Below are positions 5,253 to 35,690 of a DNA stretch of 64,000 bases, piece by piece. Where the stretch lies: positions 155,380-219,379 of the forward strand of contig CAVVLG010000003.1 in NCBI GenBank assembly GCA_963749085.1, written 5' to 3'. The notes below the pieces were generated by a model. That model had not been told where the DNA came from, did not search any database, and saw only the letters and a program-made list of their open reading frames with translations. Position 1 is the stretch's first letter. Each line of letters starts with the position of its first letter. The position numbers were made by a program, and so were the translations under genes. Source of the DNA: Candidatus Adlerbacteria bacterium (GTDB taxonomy: Bacteria > Patescibacteriota > Minisyncoccia > Phycocordibacterales > SBAW01).

Positions 5253-7445
5253 GTGCGAGACTGGTATACTCTGCGGATGCGATTAGGCGATTCTATCTCC
5301 GAACAGTTCCGCCTCATCGATGCTCAAAAAAGTGCACTCAGCAAGCTTGGCATTAAAACACTGCGCGACCTTATGTTTCACTTCCCTTCCCGCTACGAGC
5401 AAAGCGGCGACTCATCGACCATAAGCGGCTTGGTGGTAGGCATGGATGCGTCGGTGGTCGGCACGCTAGAGAAACTCGCAACAAAGAAATCATGGAAGCG
5501 CAGAATTCCAATTAGCGAGGGCTACCTGCGCGACCAAAGCGGACGCATCAAGCTTATGTGGTTCAATCAGCCCTACATTGCCAAGATGTACACGGACGGC
5601 ACGCTAGTCAAAGCCACCGGTAAAGTGAGTGGCAAGGAGCAAAGTATATATCTTGCCAATCCGGAACTCCAAAAAATATCCGCCATTGAGGCGGCGGGAC
5701 TGTTTGAAAAGGAAACGACAATAGATGCCAATACCGGTGGGGAGAAAAAGCAACTGTTCGCGCAATATCCAGAGAGTCGGGGCATCAGTTCGCTGTGGTT
5801 TCGCCACGCAATTGGAAAAATAATATCGGAAATCGACGAAGACCTTGAAGATCCCATTCCTGCGGACATTCTAAAACGCTATAACTTGCCAACACTGAAA
5901 ACCGCACTAGTATGGATTCACACGCCGCAGAAAATAAAGGACGCGGAGGCGGCGCGTAAACGCTTTGCATTCGAAGAGGTGTTTGTGATACAGCTTGAGC
6001 GCCAGCGCGAGAAAGTTCGTGAACAACGGGAGAAAAGTTTCGCCATTGACGCGCCACAAAAGCATATTGATGCATTTGTACATTCATTCCCATTCGCCGC
6101 AACGAATGCACAGAAACGCGCGATTGGAGCTATTTTGAAAGATATGCGAAGCGGCCACCCGATGTCGCGTCTCCTTGAGGGCGACGTGGGAAGCGGCAAG
6201 ACTGCCATTGCCGCGACGGCAAGTTATGCGGTAGTGCGAACGCGACCCACAGGACAAAATTTCGGAACTCTCCAAGTCGCCTATATGGCGCCGACTGAGA
6301 TCCTGGCGAAGCAGCATTTTGAGTCGTTCATAGAGTATTTTAAGGATTTTCCCATAAACATCGGGCTCATCACCGGCAGCGGATGCTATAAATTCCCCTC
6401 TAAACTTTCACGCGACAAGGCGACCACTATCTCTCGAGCACAACTCCTCAAATGGGTCTCAAACGGCGAGATACCAGTCCTCATCGGCACGCATGCGCTT
6501 ATTCAAAAGGCGGTAAAGTTTAAGCATCTTGCGCTCGTCGTTATCGATGAGCAACATCGCTTCGGCACCAACCAGCGAAAAAAATTGGCAAAAAAAGAAA
6601 TACGGTTGCCGCATTTGCTTTCAATGACCGCAACGCCAATACCGCGCACCTTGGCGCTCACGCTCTATGGTGACCTCGACTTGACACTCCTTGATGAAAT
6701 GCCACCGGGCCGCAAACCAGTCATCACCGAGCTCATAAAGTCCGACCAAAGAGAAAAAGCGTACGCAAAGATGCGGGAGGAACTTGCGGCAGGACGGCAG
6801 GCCTACGTTATATGTCCGCGCATAGACGAGCCTGAACCAGATAAAGCGTTCGCGATTCAGGCGAAGTCAGTGAAGGAAGAGGCAAAGCGGCTTAAAAAAG
6901 ATATATTTCCTGACTATGAAATTGCTGTGTTGCATTCAAAAATGACGACAAAGGAAAAAGACGACACGATGTCGCATTTCGCGAATCATGAGATAGATAT
7001 TTTGGTCGCTACGTCGGTCGTGGAAGTGGGTGTCAACGTGCCCAACGCCACGATGATATTCATCGAAGGAGCCGAGCGGTTCGGGCTGGCGCAACTCCAT
7101 CAGCTACGCGGCCGTGTAGTGCGGTCTGCTATTCAAGCGTATTGTTTCGTCTGTCCTGAGTCCAAAGGTGAGCAAACGCTCGCGCGGCTGAAAGCCCTCA
7201 TTACTGCCAAAAACGGATTCGAACTTGCCGAGCAGGACTTGATGCAGCGTGGACCAGGCGAATTGTCCGGCCGCAAACAATGGGGTATCTCTGACGTTGG
7301 TATGGAGGCTCTTAAAAATTTGAAACTTGTTGAGGCTGCACGCGCCGAAGCACTTTCATTAATAGAAAAGGACGAGGAACTTGCACAACATCCGTTACTA
7401 GCGCAGGAAGTCGCTTCTCGCACGCAAGCCCTTCATTTTGAATGA
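5253..7445 (+). CDS. recG: ATP-dependent DNA helicase RecG
   Basis: Wedge/helicase architecture; DVGSGKT Walker A, VIDEQHRFG DEQH box, helicase C motifs; GTG start in track, a downstream ATG is possible. Confidence 0.85.
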   Translation: MRDWYTLRMRLGDSISEQFRLIDAQKSALSKLGIKTLRDLMFHFPSRYEQSGDSSTISGLVVGMDASVVGTLEKLATKKSWKRRIPISEGYLRDQSGRIKLMWFNQPYIAKMYTDGTLVKATGKVSGKEQSIYLANPELQKISAIEAAGLFEKETTIDANTGGEKKQLFAQYPESRGISSLWFRHAIGKIISEIDEDLEDPIPADILKRYNLPTLKTALVWIHTPQKIKDAEAARKRFAFEEVFVIQLERQREKVREQREKSFAIDAPQKHIDAFVHSFPFAATNAQKRAIGAILKDMRSGHPMSRLLEGDVGSGKTAIAATASYAVVRTRPTGQNFGTLQVAYMAPTEILAKQHFESFIEYFKDFPINIGLITGSGCYKFPSKLSRDKATTISRAQLLKWVSNGEIPVLIGTHALIQKAVKFKHLALVVIDEQHRFGTNQRKKLAKKEIRLPHLLSMTATPIPRTLALTLYGDLDLTLLDEMPPGRKPVITELIKSDQREKAYAKMREELAAGRQAYVICPRIDEPEPDKAFAIQAKSVKEEAKRLKKDIFPDYEIAVLHSKMTTKEKDDTMSHFANHEIDILVATSVVEVGVNVPNATMIFIEGAERFGLAQLHQLRGRVVRSAIQAYCFVCPESKGEQTLARLKALITAKNGFELAEQDLMQRGPGELSGRKQWGISDVGMEALKNLKLVEAARAEALSLIEKDEELAQHPLLAQEVASRTQALHFE

Positions 7446-7528
7446 ATTGACCGCACACTAAGTACGAGATACAATAAAGGTCTAGAAGTTCTCCCCTCGA
7501 CCTCCGGCCATTTGAAAGGAACCCAGCC

Positions 7529-8215
7529 ATGAGCCAGCGGAAATGGAAGCTTGGTGACTCATGTTGCATTGCCGATGTGAATATCGCGCAAGGTAGAATG
7601 CACTTTCGTGTTATGCCCGCGCGAGTGGTGCATATAGCGGGAGTTAACGGTAGGACTGCCACCGCGCAGTCGGTCAACCCGTTACCGAAGTTGCAGTTCG
7701 GTTATTGGGACCCTCTCACCGAAGGACGACCATTCGCGAACCGGTGGTCGGCGTTCGTGCGGGTGTGGCAGGAGATGCGAAAAAATAGCATCTCCCTCTT
7801 CACGCCTATCCGATTCGAAGGTGAAGTGCCGGAAATGAAGAATCTTCCTGCAGACATACCTGAGTTGGGGCAGGTAGTCTACGGCATCGATACTGAAACG
7901 CGCGAACTCTTTGAAGCGCAGATCGGCTATCTGCACTACGCGTATGGCAGGCTTGAAGTCGGCTACGATCAGTCGCCGAACAATCCTGAGGCCTCCAATG
8001 TCCGTATCCAGCAGTGGTGGCCGACACGGGTAGCGGCGGAGGCCTGTGTACATCAAACCCAAAAAGAGGAGTACACCTTCGTCTCTAAGGAGGAGCTGGC
8101 GATACGGACCAATGCGGCTATCGACAAGATCTGGTCGGACGCGGAGGAGCGTATCAAGAGCCCAGCATTTAAAGCTTCGATGGGTAACCTCGTCGAGTCA
8201 TTCATGCGGACGTGA
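7529..8215 (+). CDS. Hypothetical protein
   Basis: Good RBS (gaaaggaa) upstream; terminator downstream; no family recognised. Confidence 0.45.
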   Translation: MSQRKWKLGDSCCIADVNIAQGRMHFRVMPARVVHIAGVNGRTATAQSVNPLPKLQFGYWDPLTEGRPFANRWSAFVRVWQEMRKNSISLFTPIRFEGEVPEMKNLPADIPELGQVVYGIDTETRELFEAQIGYLHYAYGRLEVGYDQSPNNPEASNVRIQQWWPTRVAAEACVHQTQKEEYTFVSKEELAIRTNAAIDKIWSDAEERIKSPAFKASMGNLVESFMRT

Positions 8216-8231
8216 TTTTACTCTGCAGCCC

Positions 8232-8262
8232 GCGGCGCGAAAGTGCCGCGTTTTTCTTTCAT
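8232..8262 (+). terminator. Rho-independent terminator
   Basis: gcggcgcgaaagtgccgc hairpin plus gtttttctttc. Confidence 0.55.
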
Positions 8263-8263
8263 G

Positions 8264-8337
8264 TGGGCGCGGAGGGACTCGAACCCCCAACCCCGGATGT
8301 ATAAGATCCGTGCACTAACCAATTGTGCTACGCGCCC
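8264..8337 (-). tRNA. tRNA with anticodon UAU (predicted tRNA-Ile decoding AUA); CCA not encoded
   Basis: Reverse complement GGGCGCGTAGCACAATTGGTTAGTGCACGGATCTTATACATCCGGGGTTGGGGGTTCGAGTCCCTCCGCGCCCA folds as cloverleaf: 7-bp acceptor, U8, GG in D-loop, anticodon loop CUUAUAC, TTCGAGT T-loop. Confidence 0.7.
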
Positions 8338-8374
8338 AACATTACTGTACTTACAAAAAGACGCTTTGTAAATC

Positions 8375-9040
8375 TTATCCACTAGTTTTTGATTTCAAAA
8401 CCTCTATAGTCATCATTATTTTTTCGTATAAATCTCTGCTGTACACCCATATAGCACAGGTACCAAATCCAAATCGACCTTTATAATTTCTACGCTTATT
8501 GCTTTGCGACTTTTTAATATACGTATTACGAAAAGTAGAGACGGGAAGTTTAAGTTCACTCGCCCAAAATTTCAATTGTTTTTTGGTATTCATGTCAGAA
8601 TAAAGATGGAGACGGGCATGTAACTTATTCTTATCTACGCCAAACAACTTAAGCCATTTAATGAAAAATCTGAGCATTGCTGGGTCGGTATTGGCAAGTA
8701 GTACTGTACTGCGATCAACTTTCATTCCCTCTGCCCAATAGAGAAAGAAACCCACCAGAAGAAATTCCCGTTTTGAAATAGTACCAATCTTTTCAAGAGC
8801 TTCATTAAAGACTACTTGTCTGCGTATTACCTTCTTACGCCGAAATGATTCTCTAAATTTTTCAATCCGTTGAGCACTGTTATCACGCAATGCTCTGATT
8901 CTGTCCTCACTGAGCGGATAATTGACTAACCAATAATGAAGAGTACTTTTACTAATATTCAATTCTTCCTTTATCTGACTATAACTATAGCCCTTGAGCC
9001 GCAAAGTGATTGCTTTTTCTCTTTCTTTTACACGTGCCAT
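8375..9040 (-). CDS. Hypothetical HTH-domain protein (resolvase/transposase-type HTH at N-terminus), low-GC
   Basis: ITLRLKGYSYSQIKEELNISKSTLHYWL helix-turn-helix; about 33 percent GC versus about 50 percent for neighbours; adjacent to tRNA. Confidence 0.45.
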   Translation of the reverse strand: MARVKEREKAITLRLKGYSYSQIKEELNISKSTLHYWLVNYPLSEDRIRALRDNSAQRIEKFRESFRRKKVIRRQVVFNEALEKIGTISKREFLLVGFFLYWAEGMKVDRSTVLLANTDPAMLRFFIKWLKLFGVDKNKLHARLHLYSDMNTKKQLKFWASELKLPVSTFRNTYIKKSQSNKRRNYKGRFGFGTCAIWVYSRDLYEKIMMTIEVLKSKTSG

Positions 9041-12705: not shown

Positions 12706-13071
12706 GGGAGTGCAAGGCCTAGACAATACATACGTCTCTCTGCACGCAAGAGGGCAGCGGGGTTCTGCTCTAAAAACTCCAAAGATAACTGGCAAGTCAG
12801 TTCAATCACCGTATGCGGTGAACGGTTTCGCTTTCGCTAACGCCTAAGCGACCGCGCTCGCTTCTCCTCTCCTGAAAGAGAAGGCCGAGTGTTATATCTC
12901 GGGATATAGTTTCGCAAACTGATTCTCTGCGAAATTGAAACTTGGAATCTGCGGCGTAATTCGATTTCGTCCGTTTCATACGAATTATGTCAAAGACCTC
13001 AAAGCGCACTAGCTCTTGTAGACCTGCTTATAGATCTGTATTGCACGAGGGTTCGAATCCCTCCACTTCCA
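12706..13071 (+). ncRNA. ssrA: tmRNA (ssrA), about 366 nt
   Basis: Directly downstream of smpB; 3' tRNA-like T-arm GAGGGTTCGAATCCCTC plus acceptor strand CACTTCC plus discriminator A pairing with 5' GGGAGTG; P2 helix caataca (12724-12730) with tgtattg (13038-13044); in-frame tag ORF ending TAA at 12845-12847, candidate tag GKSVQSPYAVNGFAFANA. Confidence 0.65.
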
Positions 13072-13200
13072 CAAATTCAAAAGCCCTTATTTTTCAAGGC
13101 TTTACAGAGCCAGATGACAGGTGGTTGGAACCGCCGTTTTTGAGGAAATTGTTAATTTAAGCCTTGGAATAAGGAGTTTTTGCGGTTCGAATTCAGTTAC
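13072..13200 (+). repeat. Structured repeat A1 (about 130 nt), first copy, immediately 3' of tmRNA
   Basis: About 85 percent identical to 13731-13858; nested long-range complementarity (cccttattt/aataaggg, caaggct/agcctt) and inner helix with compensatory change. Confidence 0.6.
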
Positions 13201-28621: not shown

Positions 28622-29017
28622 TTACCAAATCTCAAACAACGCTTCGCCGCCGACGCGTTTTTCATGTGCTTCTTTGCCGGAAATAACTCCGCTCGGGGTT
28701 GAGAGCACGAGAAGTCCATGGCCGCGTTTGACCGGTTTGATGTCGTGAACGCCCATATACATGCGGCGCGAGGGTTTTGAAATTCTTTTCACACCCGAGA
28801 TCGCCGGGCGACCATTTTTATAAGAAAGTATTATTGAAAGCGAATTTCCGCCAAGCGGATTCTTAACCGTTTTCAATTCGCTGACATAGCCTTCTTTGGC
28901 GAGAATTTCCGCGATGGCAAGCTTCATGCGCGAGTAGGGCGCCGACACGCGGGACTTGCCCGCCATGGAAGCGTTCTGTAAACGGATAAGCAAATCTGCT
29001 ATTGGGTCGGTTACCAT
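28622..29017 (-). CDS. rpsH: 30S ribosomal protein S8
   Basis: [16 protein letters not shown]. Confidence 0.85.
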
Positions 29018-29196
29018 GATGATTTTCGGATGCCCGGTATAAGCCCCTCGTTGGCAGCTTCTCTGAAGCAGGCGCGGCACATGCCAAAATCGCGCATGAA
29101 GGCGCGTTTGCGCCCGCAGCGGAAACAGCGTCGAACCACCCGGGATTTAAATTTGGGTGGGCGGTTTGACCTTGCAACTGTTGATTTTTTTGCCAT
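29011..29196 (-). CDS. rpsZ: 30S ribosomal protein S14, Zn-ribbon type Z (61 aa)
   Basis: [23 protein letters not shown]. Confidence 0.85.
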
Positions 29197-29328: not shown

Positions 29329-30042
29329 TCAAAATGGTATTTGAGCTTGTACACGATACGACAATATATTCGTGACTGGCACGCACGTACCCATCAGTCT
29401 GGTGCACAATATCCTTTTTCCGACGTATCCATGCAGGTTAAAGATAAAGGCATTGGCGATGCTTTCGGCAACGATGAGTGCAAAAATCGTTGCGGCTGGC
29501 AGAAGCCATTCGTCAGCATAAACAGCATCACGCGCCAGACGGTTGTCGGCTCTGAATTTTTTCAGGCCGCGCAGACGCCTACGCTCGACGAGCCGGCTCG
29601 CCTCCAGCGTCGCGCCGTGAGCAAGCTTTGCCTCTGCAACCGAGGCACGTGCGTCGGCAACCGCGAGTGTCACGTCGAGCTGGCGCGGCATGCGCGCCCG
29701 GATTTTCTCGTCGGCGTCGTGGAGCTGACTTGCGAGAAACTGCTTAAGTAAGTTGGCGCCCGACTGGATTTCAGCCACGATTTGCCGCTGCGGATCGTTC
29801 AGATCGGCATCGTCTTTGTGCGGACGGTTCTCGACGCCATCGTCTCGCGCCCGCTCGACCAAGCGCAATGACCTGGCCAAGCGCTCAAAGGCGGGACGGA
29901 GGTGGTCATTGACCTCCGGTAGCCAGCGAGTACGCGTCCATGTCGGAGATTTGGAGAAGGTATTCATCGAGCCGCGGAAGTTCATGGCAGTCACCTTAAT
30001 TATTGGTTTGAGCGTGGCCAGTTGTCGCCTGGCTGAAGACAT
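29329..30042 (-). CDS. Hypothetical charged helical protein with C-terminal TM (tail-anchored); contains direct repeat DR1 in its 3' end
   Basis: 237-aa ORF in GC-rich segment; overlapping plus-strand ORF 29224-29751 judged spurious; coding status uncertain. Confidence 0.35.
   Translation of the reverse strand: MSSARRQLATLKPIIKVTAMNFRGSMNTFSKSPTWTRTRWLPEVNDHLRPAFERLARSLRLVERARDDGVENRPHKDDADLNDPQRQIVAEIQSGANLLKQFLASQLHDADEKIRARMPRQLDVTLAVADARASVAEAKLAHGATLEASRLVERRRLRGLKKFRADNRLARDAVYADEWLLPAATIFALIVAESIANAFIFNLHGYVGKRILCTRLMGTCVPVTNILSYRVQAQIPF
29400..29437. repeat. 38-bp perfect direct repeat DR1 (tggtgcacaatatcctttttccgacgtatccatgcagg)
   Basis: Identical copy at 33679-33716; partial copy ggtgcacaata..tccgacg at 33579-33601. 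Confidence 0.9.
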
Positions 30043-30187
30043 CCATGCTTTCGCTGGGTGGTGAGCACAAACTCTTCGCTAAGAAGGTGTCTAAGCGGGA
30101 TCTGTTTTTTGAACAAAGGCATTGCCGGTGCACTAAATGTGAAGAACGGCGTTTCAGGGTTCGAACGCTTCTCGACTACTTGCGCTG

Positions 30188-31249
30188 ATGTGTGGCCGAA
30201 GCTTCGGATTTTTGAGCGCCCGGCGCAGCGTCATTGAATCTTTCGATCGAGAAGGCTATGTCCGCTTACGCGAAGTGGTTGCTCAGAACCCCGAAATTCG
30301 AGTTGCAGGCTTGGCGCAGGGCGGTGGGTGTCTGAAAAAAAGTGCGCTGATATCAACCGAGAAATGGGCGGGTGGGGAGATGGTCATCGAGCGGAAGGCC
30401 GAAAATTTCAGGTTTTTCCATCCGCGGGAGCCCTGGGGTAAAGGCGGGACTGATTATGTCCAGGTGCATTGTCGTCTGGACGATTTATACGGAATGACTG
30501 GACCGGACGCTGAAACAAATAAAGGGCTCTATAACGCGGCAAAGAGTGAAGGCAATTTTAGGGCCGCATACGAGATAATAGTTAGGCATCGCTCCGAGGA
30601 AAAGTTGAAGGCTCTGAAAGAGGTTATTGCCACGTTGAAGACGCCTGCGCTTTTCGTTTATCCACGGAAGCTGGATTTTGGTGACTCGGGCCGCACATTG
30701 GACCCGGAGAGGCCTACGAACGCCTTGCCGGTGACGCTTACCCGGTTCGTAAGCGCGCGAGTAGGCGGAGAGATATGCAAGGACATAATCCAGATGAGGA
30801 TAAGAAAGCGGACGACTCTCAATCGTCTAATACGCTTTCTTTATCAGCCGGCTTTTAAGGGCCGGGTCATTCCTGGCAGGCGATATGTTCTTGTGGACGA
30901 TGTCATTTCATCGGGGGCGCTATTCGCCTCTCTTCGAAGTCACATCGTGAAGGGCGGCGGCCTTGTCATCGGCATGACAGCGCTTGCGCATGTATCAGGT
31001 AGAGATCAGAAATTGGCGATTTCAAGGGATTCGCTGCAGGCAATGAGGATCGAATTTGGCGAAAAGATTGATGCTTTCTGGAACGGGAAGTTCGGGCACG
31101 GAATTGAGCACCTTACCGACCAAGAAGCAAAGTACCTCTTGGGTCGCTGGCGCTCGCAGCATCAGAGCATTCTGTCGGGTTCTCAGCTGCTTGAATGCCT
31201 TGCTGGCGAGATCGAGCATATTCAAATAGCACACTCCAAATATTCGTAG
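30188..31249 (+). CDS. Phosphoribosyltransferase (PRTase type I) domain protein with about 230-aa uncharacterised N-terminal region
   Basis: RRYVLVDDVISSGALFASL PRPP-binding motif; start codon uncertain (no obvious RBS). Confidence 0.55.
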   Translation: MCGRSFGFLSARRSVIESFDREGYVRLREVVAQNPEIRVAGLAQGGGCLKKSALISTEKWAGGEMVIERKAENFRFFHPREPWGKGGTDYVQVHCRLDDLYGMTGPDAETNKGLYNAAKSEGNFRAAYEIIVRHRSEEKLKALKEVIATLKTPALFVYPRKLDFGDSGRTLDPERPTNALPVTLTRFVSARVGGEICKDIIQMRIRKRTTLNRLIRFLYQPAFKGRVIPGRRYVLVDDVISSGALFASLRSHIVKGGGLVIGMTALAHVSGRDQKLAISRDSLQAMRIEFGEKIDAFWNGKFGHGIEHLTDQEAKYLLGRWRSQHQSILSGSQLLECLAGEIEHIQIAHSKYS

Positions 31250-31297
31250 ATCGCAGTATTTTGCCTTATAATTCATGCTTTTTCATGCTCCCTTGAC

Positions 31298-31332
31298 AAT
31301 TGTACTGTATTTGATAGTATATCCAAAGTTGT
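31298..31332 (+). promoter_or_regulatory. Promoter (TTGACA-16-TAGTAT) overlapped by repeated TTGTACT(G/T)TA / GTAC palindromic operator-like sites
   Basis: cccttgacaattgtactgtatttgatagtatatccaaagttgtactttacagcagtac upstream of ORF 31375. Confidence 0.45.
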
Positions 31333-31374
31333 ACTTTACAGCAGTACTTCGTCAAATCTCCAGTCCGATCCTCG

Positions 31375-31671
31375 GTGCCTGACAAATCGGGCATCGACAA
31401 CTCGGAATGGAGGTTGCTAATGGCACATTCACAATGTTGCAGCGCAAACTCGCCTGACGCGTCACGCGCTGATATCGAAGACGAAGCTTGTCGTCGGCTG
31501 ATGATTTCGCTCTACGGCAGTGAAGCCGAGGCGAGGCTTGTCGCTGAGGCCCTCTTACGGGACATAACGCCCGAAGAGGAGGAACTGATCGAGCGGCGGT
31601 ACAATGCCGGCGACCAAATCGCTGACCAAATTGTGCGCGAGCTTGGTTTCCCTCCCGAACCGGAAAGATAA
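31375..31671 (+). CDS. Small HTH protein, sigma-70 region-4-like (98 aa)
   Basis: ITPEEEELIERRYNAGDQIADQIVREL resembles region 4.2 HTH; C-terminal 55 aa duplicated at N-terminus of ORF 32704. Confidence 0.5.
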   Translation: MPDKSGIDNSEWRLLMAHSQCCSANSPDASRADIEDEACRRLMISLYGSEAEARLVAEALLRDITPEEEELIERRYNAGDQIADQIVRELGFPPEPER

Positions 31672-31715
31672 GGTGAGGGTGGCCGAGCGAGCAATTGGTA
31701 AGCGACTTCGACTTA

Positions 31716-31745
31716 AGACCCCGTAAATGCGGGGTCTTTTTGTAT
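31716..31745 (+). terminator. Rho-independent terminator
   Basis: aagaccccgtaaatgcggggtcttttt. Confidence 0.75.
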
Positions 31746-31855
31746 GCGCTTTATTTTTGGGTATTCTTCAAAAAACGGTGCTGGTTTGGACACTCTGGGT
31801 ACATAGGGTCGCTTAGCCTATCATAGTGGAGTAGAACTCTAGCACGAGAACGGCA

Positions 31856-32707
31856 ATGATACGACTGCAGCAAGCTAGAGTCTCGAAACGCGGTCCAATT
31901 CCGATGGAACGTCGGCGACCATGCGACTATTTAAAAGCACTGACCCCGGCGCATATGAGGGACGTTCGTGAGCATTTAAAAGCAATATACGCGGTGTATT
32001 CAGGGCGTCAGTTGGCGGACGATTGTGCCCAAGTAGCAATACTGTTCCTGTGGAAATACCCCTATGACTTAGAAATCGGTCCGTCCATGGGGGATGAACG
32101 CGATGCCGCTTGGTACGTAGCTGTACATAATTCGCTTCTGCGCTTCGCCAAGTCTCGCGAATTTAGAGGGTCGGTATTGCGGACCGTTTATAAGGGCAAC
32201 TTTAGCAAAGTGTCCCAAACAGAATCCGAAGGCGAACAAGACCCAGATCCAAATTGGGATACGAGCATTCGATGGTTTGAGGGTAATCTCCATTGGGAAA
32301 AGGTTTTCAAAAGTTTCCGAGCATTTTTGGCGGAGCAACCGGATATCGATCCCCTAGAGATTCAGTTGATCGACCAGCTCCACAAAAACGCCGTGCGTGA
32401 GACGATAGATGAAGGAATGGAAGATGTTTTTCGAGGCGAGAGCTTTCAAGTCGTTCACCAGCCGCTGCTAGAAGCATTGCAAGAGCATTTTCGAGCAACA
32501 GGCTGGAATATTGAAATGGTGCGAGTAACGCTCGCGAAAATTCGCCGTCATGCGATCCAATATCGGGAATCTCTAACCACTGGTGACCTTTTAGAATTTC
32601 ATGGACCCCTTCGAACTCAAGCAGATAGCCAATCGTCTATCGAGAAGAAGAAATCCAATGCCGAGCTTTGTCAGCAGACAACATCGACCAAAAGGCCAGT
32701 ATCATGA
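31856..32707 (+). CDS. Hypothetical protein with ECF-sigma region-2-like N-terminal part
   Basis: QLADDCAQVAILFLWKY and AWYVAVHNSLLRFAKSRE resemble sigma-70 regions 2.2 and 2.4; ATGA-overlapped with next gene. Confidence 0.4.
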   Translation: MIRLQQARVSKRGPIPMERRRPCDYLKALTPAHMRDVREHLKAIYAVYSGRQLADDCAQVAILFLWKYPYDLEIGPSMGDERDAAWYVAVHNSLLRFAKSREFRGSVLRTVYKGNFSKVSQTESEGEQDPDPNWDTSIRWFEGNLHWEKVFKSFRAFLAEQPDIDPLEIQLIDQLHKNAVRETIDEGMEDVFRGESFQVVHQPLLEALQEHFRATGWNIEMVRVTLAKIRRHAIQYRESLTTGDLLEFHGPLRTQADSQSSIEKKKSNAELCQQTTSTKRPVS

Positions 32708-33570
32708 CCAAAAAACCCACCCCTGTGAGCGGAACGACAAACGAAGACGAAGCTTGTCGTCGGCTGATGATTTCGCTCTACGGCAGTGAAGCCGAGGCGA
32801 GGCTTGTCGCTGAAGCCCTCTTACGGGACATAACGCCAGAAGAGGAGGAACTGATCGAGCGGCGGTACAATGCCGGCGACCAAATCGCTGACCAAATTGT
32901 GCGCGAAGCTGGATTAGAGTCAAAAGTGCCGGCCGCGATGGGTTATGACGTTGATATCCCGTTCACCGAAGAACAGGAAAAGGAATTTGTCTCATTCGTG
33001 GAAGCAGTTTATCGCCGAGCAGAAGATCAACAAGATCGCACTGCACCTTTAGAGCGAGTTCCAGCTGGCGTCCTGGGCGCTCTGGCAGAACTCGGGCATG
33101 TTGCAGCGGCTAAAGTGGTGTCCGTAGCCGATGTAGTTGGGGAATGGCTATCTTTGCCTTTGCAGGCCTTTAATACGATCGACCTCGCGTACGGGAAGCC
33201 TGCTTTAGCGACTGCCGAGGTCGCTAGCGAACAGGTGCTGCATAAAGTCGGCAAGCGTGTTTTTCTGGCTGACCTAGGCGCAGAAAGCTCGCAGCTAGCG
33301 GAGAGCAAATGGCGATCTGCTGAGATAAGATTGATATTGTCAATTAATTCGCGTCGCGAAATTGATGACGTGAGCATCACGGCTCGTGGAAGTGAACTCG
33401 ATAAATTGACGAATGAAATTCTTGATGTGCGCCTGAGGGATCGAGCGGGTAACAAGCGGACCATTGCTCTTTCTCGGGAACGGCTGCAAGGCTACATGCG
33501 AGGTAAATCACTTTCCGGCGATCTCGCAGAATTAGAGCTACTGGTTCATGTCGACCATCGACCAACGTAA
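32704..33570 (+). CDS. Hypothetical protein with N-terminal sigma-region-4-like HTH (duplicated module)
   Basis: N-terminal 55 aa identical to C-terminus of ORF 31375 (165 nt, 2 mismatches). Confidence 0.5.
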   Translation: MTKKPTPVSGTTNEDEACRRLMISLYGSEAEARLVAEALLRDITPEEEELIERRYNAGDQIADQIVREAGLESKVPAAMGYDVDIPFTEEQEKEFVSFVEAVYRRAEDQQDRTAPLERVPAGVLGALAELGHVAAAKVVSVADVVGEWLSLPLQAFNTIDLAYGKPALATAEVASEQVLHKVGKRVFLADLGAESSQLAESKWRSAEIRLILSINSRREIDDVSITARGSELDKLTNEILDVRLRDRAGNKRTIALSRERLQGYMRGKSLSGDLAELELLVHVDHRPT

Positions 33571-33678
33571 GCTACCGGGGTGCACAATAGAACCTCCGAC
33601 GCTGATCGGCGCTATCGCTCGCGAACTCGAACGTGAGTTGAATGAAGCGATTCCCGCGGAGCTGAAAAGTTGTCGGCT

Positions 33679-33716
33679 TGGTGCACAATATCCTTTTTCC
33701 GACGTATCCATGCAGG
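33679..33716. repeat. 38-bp perfect direct repeat DR2
   Basis: Identical to 29400-29437; 17 nt from cas2 stop. Confidence 0.9.
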
Positions 33717-33733
33717 AGCCAGTAAATTAAGGC

Positions 33734-34045
33734 TTATTTGACTATCCGCACAATCTCATACGCGGGCTTGCCCGTGATGGCCTGTAGCGTCTCATGCCCT
33801 ATGCTAGCATCCTTTGTGCACGACGCACACATAGCGAACGAATAATGCGAATCAGTCTTTCCGCAGAACAGAGTCTTCAGTTTGCTGTCGAGCGACACAC
33901 GTTCCTCCCGATATAAGGTCCCAATATACAGCTTTTTATGTAGCGGCCTGAGCCCAAAATCCTTGCACCAATTCTCAGCCTGTCGCGTCCTGCGCCAGTT
34001 ACGCGTTTGCCAGGATACGACTACCGTAAATAGCAGATTGTTCAT
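33734..34045 (-). CDS. cas2: Putative CRISPR-associated endoribonuclease Cas2
   Basis: Immediately follows cas1 (6-nt gap); about 100 aa; N-terminal LLFTVVVS..RRTRQ pattern like E. coli-type Cas2 (MLVVVTENVPPRLRGRL). Confidence 0.5.
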   Translation of the reverse strand: MNNLLFTVVVSWQTRNWRRTRQAENWCKDFGLRPLHKKLYIGTLYREERVSLDSKLKTLFCGKTDSHYSFAMCASCTKDASIGHETLQAITGKPAYEIVRIVK

Positions 34046-34051
34046 AGTGTG

Positions 34052-35062
34052 TTAGAGCAGCAAGGAGAAATCAAATGCTGCATATGTGTCCTGCTTTTCC
34101 AAGAAATAGCGGGCAAGCGCCCTGCTTTGCTCCTCGATAATTACTTGGAGGGTGCGTTGCTTGCCTTTCCATTTTACCGTTTTATTAAGCTGTTTGAATA
34201 CTGCCTCAACTACCTTGGCCTTCCCCTCGGGAGAGAGCCGGTACTCCGTGTTGTTTACTTTCTCAAAATCGCCCCGCCTGCCCAGCTTTTTTTCGAGAAA
34301 GAGCGGAAAGATTGCCGAATCCACCACTGGCACGCGGAATTCTTCGACCATGTCCAAAACTAGGGCCGGTTTGCCATAACGCTCGGAGTGATACAAGCCA
34401 AGGTACGGGTCAAGGCCGATATAGAGGCAGGCACGTTCTACTTCGTTGTAGAGAATGCCGTAGCCGTAGTTGATAGCACTGTTGAATTTGTCGCGGCCTT
34501 GCGGGATGCGACCCGGAAACTTATGTAATTGCCTAAGCGATTGCCAATACTTTTCTGCAATGAATCCTTCGATGCCGAACAACTGCTCGCGAGCCTTGTC
34601 GCTCGGAGGAATGGTATTGATGGTCTTGGAGAGCGTCTCGGCCTGAACGATTCCCTTTTCAAAGTCAGCTCCGCACTTGGCCATCAAGAATTTCAAATAG
34701 GTGATTTGGTTTTTGCATTTTCCCGCGATGAAGCTTTTGGCGAGCGAGAGCGCCTGCGGAAGGTCAGTCGCGACCTCGAGCTGGGCGCGTCGAGTCGTAG
34801 CTAACCCTCGCGCATCACTGCCAAAAATCCTGCCGACAGGTTTGCCGAAGGATCCGAGATACACGATGTCAACTTCGTGCTCAAGGGCAAGCTTTACGGC
34901 GTGGGTCGAAATGGAAGAGGGCCGAAGAATGACGATTTTGCTGAGCCTGCGTATCGGATATTCTTTGGTAATCCGCTTCTTGGTCTTCGAGGGCAGGCGC
35001 AAGACAAGGCGCTCACCTGTCGAACCTATATACGTGCCGTAGGTGTCGATGAGGAGGTCCAT
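34052..35062 (-). CDS. cas1: CRISPR-associated endonuclease Cas1 (start trimmed to MDLLIDTYG)
   Basis: NSAINYGYGILYNEVERACLYIGLDPYLGLYH...LVLDMVEEFRVPVVD matches Cas1 catalytic His/Asp signature; upstream part of listed ORF overlaps rplE and is discarded. Confidence 0.85.
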   Translation of the reverse strand: MDLLIDTYGTYIGSTGERLVLRLPSKTKKRITKEYPIRRLSKIVILRPSSISTHAVKLALEHEVDIVYLGSFGKPVGRIFGSDARGLATTRRAQLEVATDLPQALSLAKSFIAGKCKNQITYLKFLMAKCGADFEKGIVQAETLSKTINTIPPSDKAREQLFGIEGFIAEKYWQSLRQLHKFPGRIPQGRDKFNSAINYGYGILYNEVERACLYIGLDPYLGLYHSERYGKPALVLDMVEEFRVPVVDSAIFPLFLEKKLGRRGDFEKVNNTEYRLSPEGKAKVVEAVFKQLNKTVKWKGKQRTLQVIIEEQSRALARYFLEKQDTYAAFDFSLLL

Positions 35063-35153: not shown

Positions 35154-35690
35154 CTACTTTTTGAACGGGAACCCGAGGTGTGCGAGATACTCCTCGGCTT
35201 CTTTTTTATTTTTCGCAGTGGTGACGATAGTCGTCGCCATACCGAACACGTCCTTAAGTTCTTCATCGGTGGTCTCTGGAAAAACAATATGTTCTTTGAT
35301 GCCAAGTGTATAGTTGCCCATTTCATCAATGGCACCTTTTGAGATTCCTTTGAAGTCTTTAGTGCGCGGGAGCGCCACATGGATGAGACGGTTCAAAAAA
35401 TCTTCGGCACGCTTGCCGCGCAGTGTTACTTGGTATCCTACTTTGTCGCCAATGCGCGTTTTGTACGTCGCAATGGACTTTTTGGCTCCTCGCGTGGCTG
35501 GTTTTTGTCCTGTTATCTTTGCCAAGCGGTCGGCAACCAATTCAACCTTCGGTTTATCCTTGGCCATCTTGCCCACACCAACTGAAATAACCACTTTTTC
35601 TATACGCGGTACTTGCATGGCGTTTTTCCATTTGAATTCGGTTTTCAAAGCGCTGAAAGCCTTTTTCTGTTTGACTTGAATAAGTTCCAT
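35154..35690 (-). CDS. rplE: 50S ribosomal protein L5
   Basis: Full-length L5 similarity. Confidence 0.9.
   Translation of the reverse strand: MELIQVKQKKAFSALKTEFKWKNAMQVPRIEKVVISVGVGKMAKDKPKVELVADRLAKITGQKPATRGAKKSIATYKTRIGDKVGYQVTLRGKRAEDFLNRLIHVALPRTKDFKGISKGAIDEMGNYTLGIKEHIVFPETTDEELKDVFGMATTIVTTAKNKKEAEEYLAHLGFPFKK

Follow-up and report, generated by a model that had tools for sequence, protein, structure and literature searches.

CRISPR-type repeats bounding a kilobase insert beside an effector-less cas1-cas2 module in a Patescibacteria-like genome: a candidate case of long-DNA integration by Cas1-Cas2

The window analysed here, a 64,000-nucleotide stretch of Candidatus Adlerbacteria DNA (assembly GCA_963749085.1, contig CAVVLG010000003.1, positions 155,380 to 219,379), carries on its minus strand the genes cas1 and cas2 of CRISPR systems, followed by two identical repeats that enclose 4.2 kb of DNA. 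Read along that strand, the order is rplE, a terminator-like hairpin, cas1, cas2, 17 nt, a repeat, an insert of 4242 bp, a second repeat, 203 nt and rpsN. The whole sits in the minus-strand ribosomal-protein (spc) operon, in which rplE and rpsN are normally adjacent; here L15, S5, L18, L6, S8 and S14 end at 29196, L5, L24 and L14 resume at 35154, and about 5.9 kb separates rplE and rpsN. The best explanation of the feature is an effector-less cas1-cas2-leader-repeat module lodged in the ribosomal-protein operon of a Patescibacteria-like genome.

The cas1 gene (34052-35062, minus strand, 336 amino acids) is matched by Pfam PF01867 (E=1e-66), by the PADLOC Cas1b model (E=5e-72) and by PDB entry 4n06 (E=1e-32), and the PADLOC models that score best with its product are those of I-B-type Cas1. 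Its mechanical open reading frame (ORF) extends to 35380, and homology begins at the methionine encoded at 35062. Residues E165, H225, D237 and E240 are invariant among 28 relatives, a pattern which, judged from sequence, points to an intact integrase active site. The product of cas2 (33734-34045, minus strand, 103 amino acids) is recognised by PADLOC Cas2b (E=1e-6) and other Cas2 models, and the gene stands beside cas1 in 27 of 33 loci. Related Cas1 proteins number 681 at E<1e-40, many of them labelled Parcubacteria, Paceibacterota or Patescibacteria; the nearest annotated Cas1 is 35% identical in plasmids and 26% in phages. The 64-kb window holds no effector genes, its largest ORFs being RecG, FtsH and RNase Y, and cas1 and cas2 are the only conserved neighbours, with no effector, within the 10 kb to which the search around 33 loci was confined.

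Between the cas2 stop and the first repeat lies a leader-like junction (33717-33733, minus strand, GCCTTAATTTACTGGCT) that ends in the family-conserved ..ctGGCT. An A-rich tract followed by this motif is conserved immediately before the first repeat in 54 distinct loci, and the motif is missing before later repeats, so that it marks the first repeat only. The segment is very short and in part overlaps the end of cas2, and its role as a leader is putative.

The repeat itself was first noticed as a 38-mer, TGGTGCACAATATCCTTTTTCCGACGTATCCATGCAGG, with two exact copies on the plus strand at 29400-29437 and 33679-33716. That observation in the original prediction, made from the letters of the sequence alone, is borne out, together with its remarks that cas2 lies beside the repeat and that the repeat is not palindromic: the 38-mer has no further match at up to three mismatches and none in 100 shuffles, and its sole inverted feature is the 4-bp terminal motif TGCA...TGCA. 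In related loci the repeat unit is 37 nt long, which in the window corresponds to 29401-29437 and 33680-33716 with the minus-strand reading CCTGCATGGATACGTCGGAAAAAGGATATTGTGCACC; the 38th common base is probably due to chance. The leader-proximal copy (33680-33716, minus strand) matches the profile of the repeat family with E=6e-7, and the distal copy (29401-29437), on the same strand and in the same orientation, matches it as well; identity extends to 33679 in the former and to 29400 in the latter. RNA structure prediction on the repeat gave no fold, Tandem Repeats Finder reported no array in the window, and an Rfam scan of the window returned chance-level matches only. A 37-nt, same-orientation pair whose proximal copy begins 17 nt after cas2 is what is expected of CRISPR direct repeats (23-50 nt, near-identical, beside cas genes), and we hold with high confidence that the two 38-mers are CRISPR-type repeats of the adjacent cas1-cas2 module. 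Regularly sized short spacers (about 26-72 bp), on the other hand, are lacking: the interval is 4242 bp in the window and 140-8291 bp in its relatives.

The perfect identity of the two copies is also what an assembly artefact or a recent segmental duplication would give, as had been considered originally. We assign next to no credence to either. The duplicated part amounts to 37-38 nt only, and since a sequencing read is longer than the repeat, there is no credible case for a collapse artefact. When run ERR12036785 was assembled independently at k=31, the junction sequences came out the same and the contigs broke inside the repeat, one (L001) ending 30 nt into it and another (L002) beginning at window position 29410, as expected of a true two-copy sequence. 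Furthermore, homologous repeats occupy the same position in dozens of genomes, and the feature is kept in long-read metagenome-assembled genomes (MAGs) and in a closed chromosome.

A third, degenerate copy had likewise been proposed at 33579-33601. The sequence there is as described (GGTGCACAAT..TCCGACG) and, if a 2-nt gap is allowed for, is similar to the 3' two-thirds of the repeat; its standing as a repeat is another matter, since its local alignment score of 25 was equalled by 11 of 500 shuffled repeats over the insert (p about 0.02). Partial copies are not a recurrent feature of related loci (18 matches versus 13.4 in shuffles), and degenerate repeats within their inserts do not exceed the shuffled background. 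We therefore treat this sequence as a weak feature, either a truncated relic of a middle repeat or a chance resemblance.

What lies between the repeats is an insert in spacer position (29438-33679, 4242 bp, GC (guanine plus cytosine) fraction 0.52) that holds four plus-strand genes of 353, 98, 283 and 300 codons and one minus-strand ORF. Pfam, PHROG and PADLOC scans find no integrase, transposase or polymerase among them, in keeping with the earlier statement that the block has no integrase, and the insert has neither terminal inverted repeats nor a target duplication. The four plus-strand genes are syntenic with positions 5832-8743 of another contig, L004, at 47-59% protein identity. This contig is 22 kb long and is considered plasmid-like because of the other proteins it encodes: one matching Replic_Relax (E=5e-21), a weak T4CP-like one and one with a transglycosylase domain. 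A blastn search of the block against known plasmids and phages gave no match.

The first of the four genes, p353 (30188-31249), bears a phosphoribosyltransferase-like motif, VLVDDVISSG, matches phrog_22413 (E=8e-27) and is 59% identical to L004 5832-6644; its homologues are 270-300 amino acids long, which probably puts the true start near 30380. IMG/VR viral contigs hold relatives that are 30-37% identical, and the family is thus found on both plasmid-like and viral contigs. p353 also gave a weak PADLOC match to ShosT (E=0.008). The second, p98 (31375-31671; tblastn to L004 6753-7010, 55% identity), has a domain in common with the N-terminus of p300, and a consensus scan places a promoter-like site (31293-31320) and a terminator-like hairpin (31715-31738) on its two sides. 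The third, p283 (31856-32707), is syntenic with a 258-aa gene of L004 (47% identity over 230 aa to 7183-7869) and has no Pfam, PHROG or PADLOC match. The fourth, p300 (32668-33570, with a likely start at ATG 32704), is syntenic with a 259-aa gene there (50% identity over 129 aa to 7958-8326). A 60-aa ORF at the proximal end of the insert was compared with the next L004 gene and is too short to show homology. Within the insert, a 174-nt direct repeat that is 97% identical (31476-31649 and 32742-32915) joins p98 to the N-terminus of p300. The paralogy of these two genes is present in L004 as well, where the copies match part of the 174-nt stretch at about 70% nucleotide identity to the window; the near-identity in the window suggests recent gene conversion.

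The distal end of the insert is the more telling one. A minus-strand gene fragment of about 183 codons (29438-29985) is cut at the distal repeat, the mechanical ORF reading on through the repeat to 29329. Its 128 homologues, mostly 470-550 aa long, align over the first ~200 residues only; most alignments stop at query residue 201-205, which is the repeat boundary at 29437/29438, and similarity is lost after F201. The gene does not resume beyond the distal repeat, where the upstream region of rpsN lies. Since a gene is cut exactly at the repeat boundary, the insert is to be seen as a fragment of a larger plasmid-like element, not as a complete integrated element.

This bears directly on a reading raised in the original prediction, according to which the repeats are attL and attR. 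In its fuller form, a circular element would have recombined with the chromosomal repeat, through a recombinase acting in trans or by homologous recombination with a repeat-like sequence, a solitary repeat unit, borne on the element. Perfect direct repeats at both ends would follow naturally, the partial copy at 33579-33601 could be a relic of the element-borne site, and phages that integrate into CRISPR repeats are known (bioRxiv 10.1101/2020.10.09.333658). However, the block has no integrase and is incomplete, its distal end truncating a gene of ~500 codons, and the related plasmid-like contig L004 has no repeat-like site. The consensus of the repeat family (CcTGCAnannnnngTCGcAnAAaGGanaTTGTGCaaC) has no match in IMG/VR. 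Moreover, the inserts of other loci are pieces of cellular genes (ndk, dnaX, a kinase), which cannot all carry the repeat. An integrative element bounded by attL and attR was accordingly rejected for want of an integrase and for its truncated end, and recombination of a circular element in any of the ways just described appears unlikely.

How general the arrangement is can be judged from 32 genome loci and 73 metagenome loci that carry a related Cas1, which were scanned with a profile made from the repeats. In 30 of the 32 genome loci (Cas1 54-81% identical), a homologous 37-nt repeat occurs on the cas strand 17-60 nt after cas2, and the same holds for most of those metagenome loci whose Cas1 is at least 55% identical and whose sequence reaches past cas2. 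The family comprises 53 sequence variants. The closest relative (L038, Cas1 94% identical) carries CCTGCATAGATACGTCGCAAAAAGGAGCTTGTGCACC, and its DNA likeness to the window is confined to the span from the start of cas1 through the last base of the repeat. Another locus (L039) has one repeat and no insert, with dnaN and dnaA directly after it; it represents an 'empty' state, of the kind which the original prediction had suggested looking for in relatives. An exact 25-mer of the window repeat matched nothing in IMG/VR, the GTDB genomes or the JGI metagenomes.

In nineteen loci, the window included, the repeat is present in 2-8 copies. All of these lie on the cas strand, and the copies of one locus are identical, the exceptions being a single substitution in L012 and an altered 5' end in L028. 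The nineteen include long-read MAGs and a chromosome of 876 kb that is closed (L022, with 8 copies). Between the copies lie 41 distinct inserts of 140-8291 bp (median 1429), two of which contain cas genes, and there is no similarity between inserts of different loci. Their contents are mostly cellular-type genes (isochorismatase, SDR, MFS, methyltransferases, polyprenyl synthase); mobile-element genes are few, an integrase and a T4CP-like protein. An internal ndk fragment in an insert of L022 is 78% identical to the chromosome of a relative, and some inserts have the look of cellular genes, possibly self ones. Inserts usually have a lower GC fraction than the host flank.

Gene orientation in the inserts is mixed (9693 aa versus 7655 aa), and many genes are incomplete: the ORF is open at the insert boundary at its 5' end in 21 of 78 cases and at its 3' end in 16 of 78. 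Domains are cut at the repeats as well, leaving profile positions 157-259 of 263 in a Pkinase, 12-64 of 64 in a GntR and 1-220 of 349 in a FAD_binding_3 domain, and one insert holds dnaX minus its first few codons, as estimated from typical DnaX N-termini. No convincing end motifs or signals like protospacer-adjacent motifs were found in the inserts. Counted from the upstream repeat, the fifth base is a T in 21 of the 41 inserts, which may be a weak end preference or chance, as many positions were examined.

These loci weigh heavily on a second reading, whereby an ordinary CRISPR array, or its remnant, received a mobile element in one of its spacers, so that neighbouring repeats were pushed apart. 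The adjacency of cas1-cas2, the resemblance of the block to mobile-element genes and the possible degenerate repeat 78 nt from the proximal copy are all compatible with such an insertion. However, no spacer remnants are left on either side of the block: coding sequence of plasmid-like character adjoins the distal repeat directly, and a gene breaks off at that very point. Nor does the block contain a transposase or an integrase, or show terminal inverted repeats or a target duplication. Beyond the window, the same layout with unrelated inserts recurs in 18 other loci. Ordinary short-spacer arrays are absent from the clade (~100 related loci), whereas the array finder does detect them in three outgroup loci, whose Cas1 is 28% identical and whose arrays have 70-79-nt periods. 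Insertion into a spacer is thus largely refuted and retains a slim chance at best. Of the original suggestion of CRISPR repeat remnants beside cas2, the CRISPR character of the repeats stands; their being an array remnant interrupted by an element does not, since spacer remnants are missing, the block is a fragment and kilobase inserts are found clade-wide.

The junctions also allow the relation between repeat and insert to be turned around, the 37-mer being taken as a tiny mobile unit which Cas1 or another enzyme put into native DNA after cas2. Its short inverted termini, TGCA...TGCA, would suit a mobile unit, and some junctions do give an open frame across once the repeat is removed. Nevertheless, the best such junction joins unrelated proteins, namely the N-terminus of a FAD monooxygenase and the C-terminus of a T4CP-like protein, and the cut gene of the window does not continue past the distal repeat. 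More generally, the genes to either side of a repeat have no relation to each other, and the repeat is not bounded by a target-site duplication. For the junctions tested, insertion of the 37-mer into contiguous DNA was rejected on these two grounds, and we consider a mobile 37-mer highly improbable.

This leaves the module's own enzymes. In CRISPR spacer integration, staggered attacks at both ends of a repeat are followed by repair that duplicates the repeat. A fixed 37-bp duplication, unrelated linear fragments, an intact Cas1-Cas2 pair and a leader junction together form the signature of that reaction, from which insert length is the sole departure, and for this reason we propose that this Cas1-Cas2 clade integrates long DNA. 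In this scheme, Cas1-Cas2 would attack the leader-proximal repeat at both of its ends in staggered fashion, adaptation chemistry that operates with no length control would join a long piece of linear DNA there, and gap repair would duplicate the repeat into two identical copies of the same orientation. The repeat pair of the window would be the product of one such event, in which 4.2 kb of a plasmid-like element was captured; should the sequence at 33579-33601 be the relic of a middle repeat, two events and then an internal deletion would be implied. We put the probability that Cas1-Cas2 itself inserted the 4.2-kb fragment at roughly 0.7, and infer that integration was leader-proximal.

Several considerations weigh against integration by Cas1-Cas2. 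First, known Cas1-Cas2 complexes measure prespacers of about 30-40 bp, and we know of no experiment in which any Cas1-Cas2 integrated kilobase DNA. Second, a near-identical donor was not found, so that protein-level synteny is the basis for regarding the window insert as foreign, and insert GC equals host GC in the window. Third, the partial repeat at 33579-33601 is left unexplained by a simple integration model. Fourth, repeats abut a truncated cas1 in three loci (L033 9966-11120, L069 1533-2266 and L095 5807-6129, retaining residues 98-330, 1-234 and 1-99, respectively), which points to deletions or integrations within cas genes; rearrangements beyond simple acquisition therefore occur. Fifth, neither strain-level acquisition polymorphism nor an order of acquisition is shown by the ten groundwater contigs (L123-L132) that encode one identical Cas1 (P0017): the same downstream gene follows in nine, the tenth does not reach far enough to show it, and the contig scanned for the repeat (L130, the same as L044) has a single copy. 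Finally, an effector may be encoded elsewhere in these genomes.

Having weighed these points, we regard as evenly balanced the broader proposal that this Cas1-Cas2 clade is a natural integrase free of a length ruler, which, working with no effector, writes fragments that range from hundreds of base pairs to thousands into a 37-nt repeat next to the leader, and that the loci are a CRISPR-derived DNA archive or gene-capture system rather than classical immunity. Candidate uses of the stored DNA are a defence memory read by unlinked factors, a device for capturing DNA or genes, and a tolerated by-product.

A few further observations concern the module and its surroundings. In one MAG (MFD05512.bin.1.167; L017, L021, L031 and L033), a 1.5-kb unit is present at least three times at 99.8% identity with different inserts downstream. 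The unit begins at a hairpin (TGTCCACGACGGGGACCC..) and runs from ~100 nt of upstream sequence through cas1 and cas2 to the leader and the repeat, which suggests a module that is itself mobile or duplicated. In 5 of 31 loci scanned (L012, L014, L022, L025 and L084), cas1 is preceded by a tRNA gene whose end lies less than 150 nt upstream of it; mobile DNA commonly lands at tRNA genes. The P0017 contigs have two upstream contexts, in one of which a divergent tyrosine recombinase abuts cas1. Ribosomal genes stand beside cas1 in none of the 32 related genome loci compared. In the window, rplE (L5; 35154-35690, minus strand) is identified by Pfam Ribosomal_L5 and L5_C, and rpsN (29011-29196, minus strand), recognised from its translation, encodes a zinc-type S14 of 61 aa at 203 nt from the distal repeat. 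The terminator-like hairpin between rplE and cas1 (35110-35094, minus strand) comes from a consensus scan, and a minus-strand promoter-like site (29297-29269) might serve rpsN together with the genes that follow. Elsewhere, the window contains a tRNA-Ile gene with a TAT anticodon (8263-8337) and a transfer-messenger RNA gene (12706-13072, tag GKSVQSPYAVNGFAFANA).

CRISPR adaptation is defined by tightly measured short spacers. Kilobase inserts left between repeats by a conserved clade of Cas1-Cas2 that has no effector close by would imply either that the integrase works with no length ruler or that another process imitates CRISPR integration very precisely. Such a clade would also offer a possible explanation for why 'CRISPR-poor' Patescibacteria keep a highly conserved cas1-cas2, and two enzymes able to place kilobase DNA, with no need of homology, at one defined site of 37 bp would be of obvious value for engineering. 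The clade extends over Patescibacteria and some other uncultivated bacteria, and for annotation the consequence is that such arrays are missed entirely by standard CRISPR finders.

Compared with canonical CRISPR adaptation, for example that of E. coli type I-E, the clade shares the adjacent cas1-cas2 with conserved catalytic residues, 37-nt repeats of the same orientation, a conserved leader-repeat junction, unique and unrelated inserts and a single-repeat 'empty' state. The 3' end of the repeat also resembles the ...GGATTGAGAC ends of the outgroup-locus repeats. Several differences were found, however. The inserts are uneven in size, at 140-8291 bp as opposed to about 30-40 bp, and hold whole and truncated genes, some of them possibly self; furthermore, no effector, Cas4 or Cas6 is linked, and the repeat has no predicted RNA structure.

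In Streptococcus pyogenes, too, large foreign DNA comes to lie between two CRISPR repeats, through prophage integration (bioRxiv 10.1101/2020.10.09.333658). That element is reportedly a complete phage which brings an integrase of its own and whose attP imitates the repeat, unlike the window's truncated fragment, which has no integrase and whose related donor-type contig L004 has no repeat. Stand-alone adaptation modules, which are described as products of effector-gene deletion (Hudaiberdiev et al. 2017, PMC5704561), are alike in having cas1-cas2 with no effector genes; the present loci differ in forming a large conserved clade with non-canonical arrays. Full-text searches of the literature, which did not extend to subscription-only sources, gave no account of kilobase inserts between CRISPR repeats, of Cas1-Cas2 in Patescibacteria or of the repeat sequence. 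We therefore regard these loci as a variant of CRISPR adaptation loci not previously recognised, or at least not found in the literature searched.

In overall layout the loci recall integrons, where the gene for a recombination enzyme likewise stands beside an array of unrelated kilobase segments, with a repeated site between the segments and a fixed entry point. Unlike in integrons, there is no tyrosine recombinase in the module, the separators are identical unstructured 37-mers instead of variable folded attC sites, and the segments lie in both orientations and often cut genes, in place of tidy promoterless cassettes. Identity with an integron was rejected on the same counts, namely the missing recombinase, the unstructured repeat and the inserts, which lie in both orientations and hold cut genes.

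Casposons, the transposons of Cas1-solo 'casposases', are alike in that a Cas1-family integrase handles kilobase DNA and the target is duplicated, and the window Cas1 matches the casposase in PDB entry 6opm with E=7e-25. A casposon has inverted repeats at its termini, a polymerase of family B and short, variable target duplications of 14-15 bp. Here, by contrast, inverted ends and a polymerase are both missing, cas2 accompanies cas1, the duplication is of a fixed 37-nt repeat next to these genes, and the inserted DNAs are arbitrary fragments; casposon identity was rejected because the insert has neither inverted ends nor a polymerase and the duplicated sequence is a fixed repeat. If true, the integration proposed here would bridge the casposons, which move long DNA via Cas1, and CRISPR arrays, an evolutionary link that has long been discussed.

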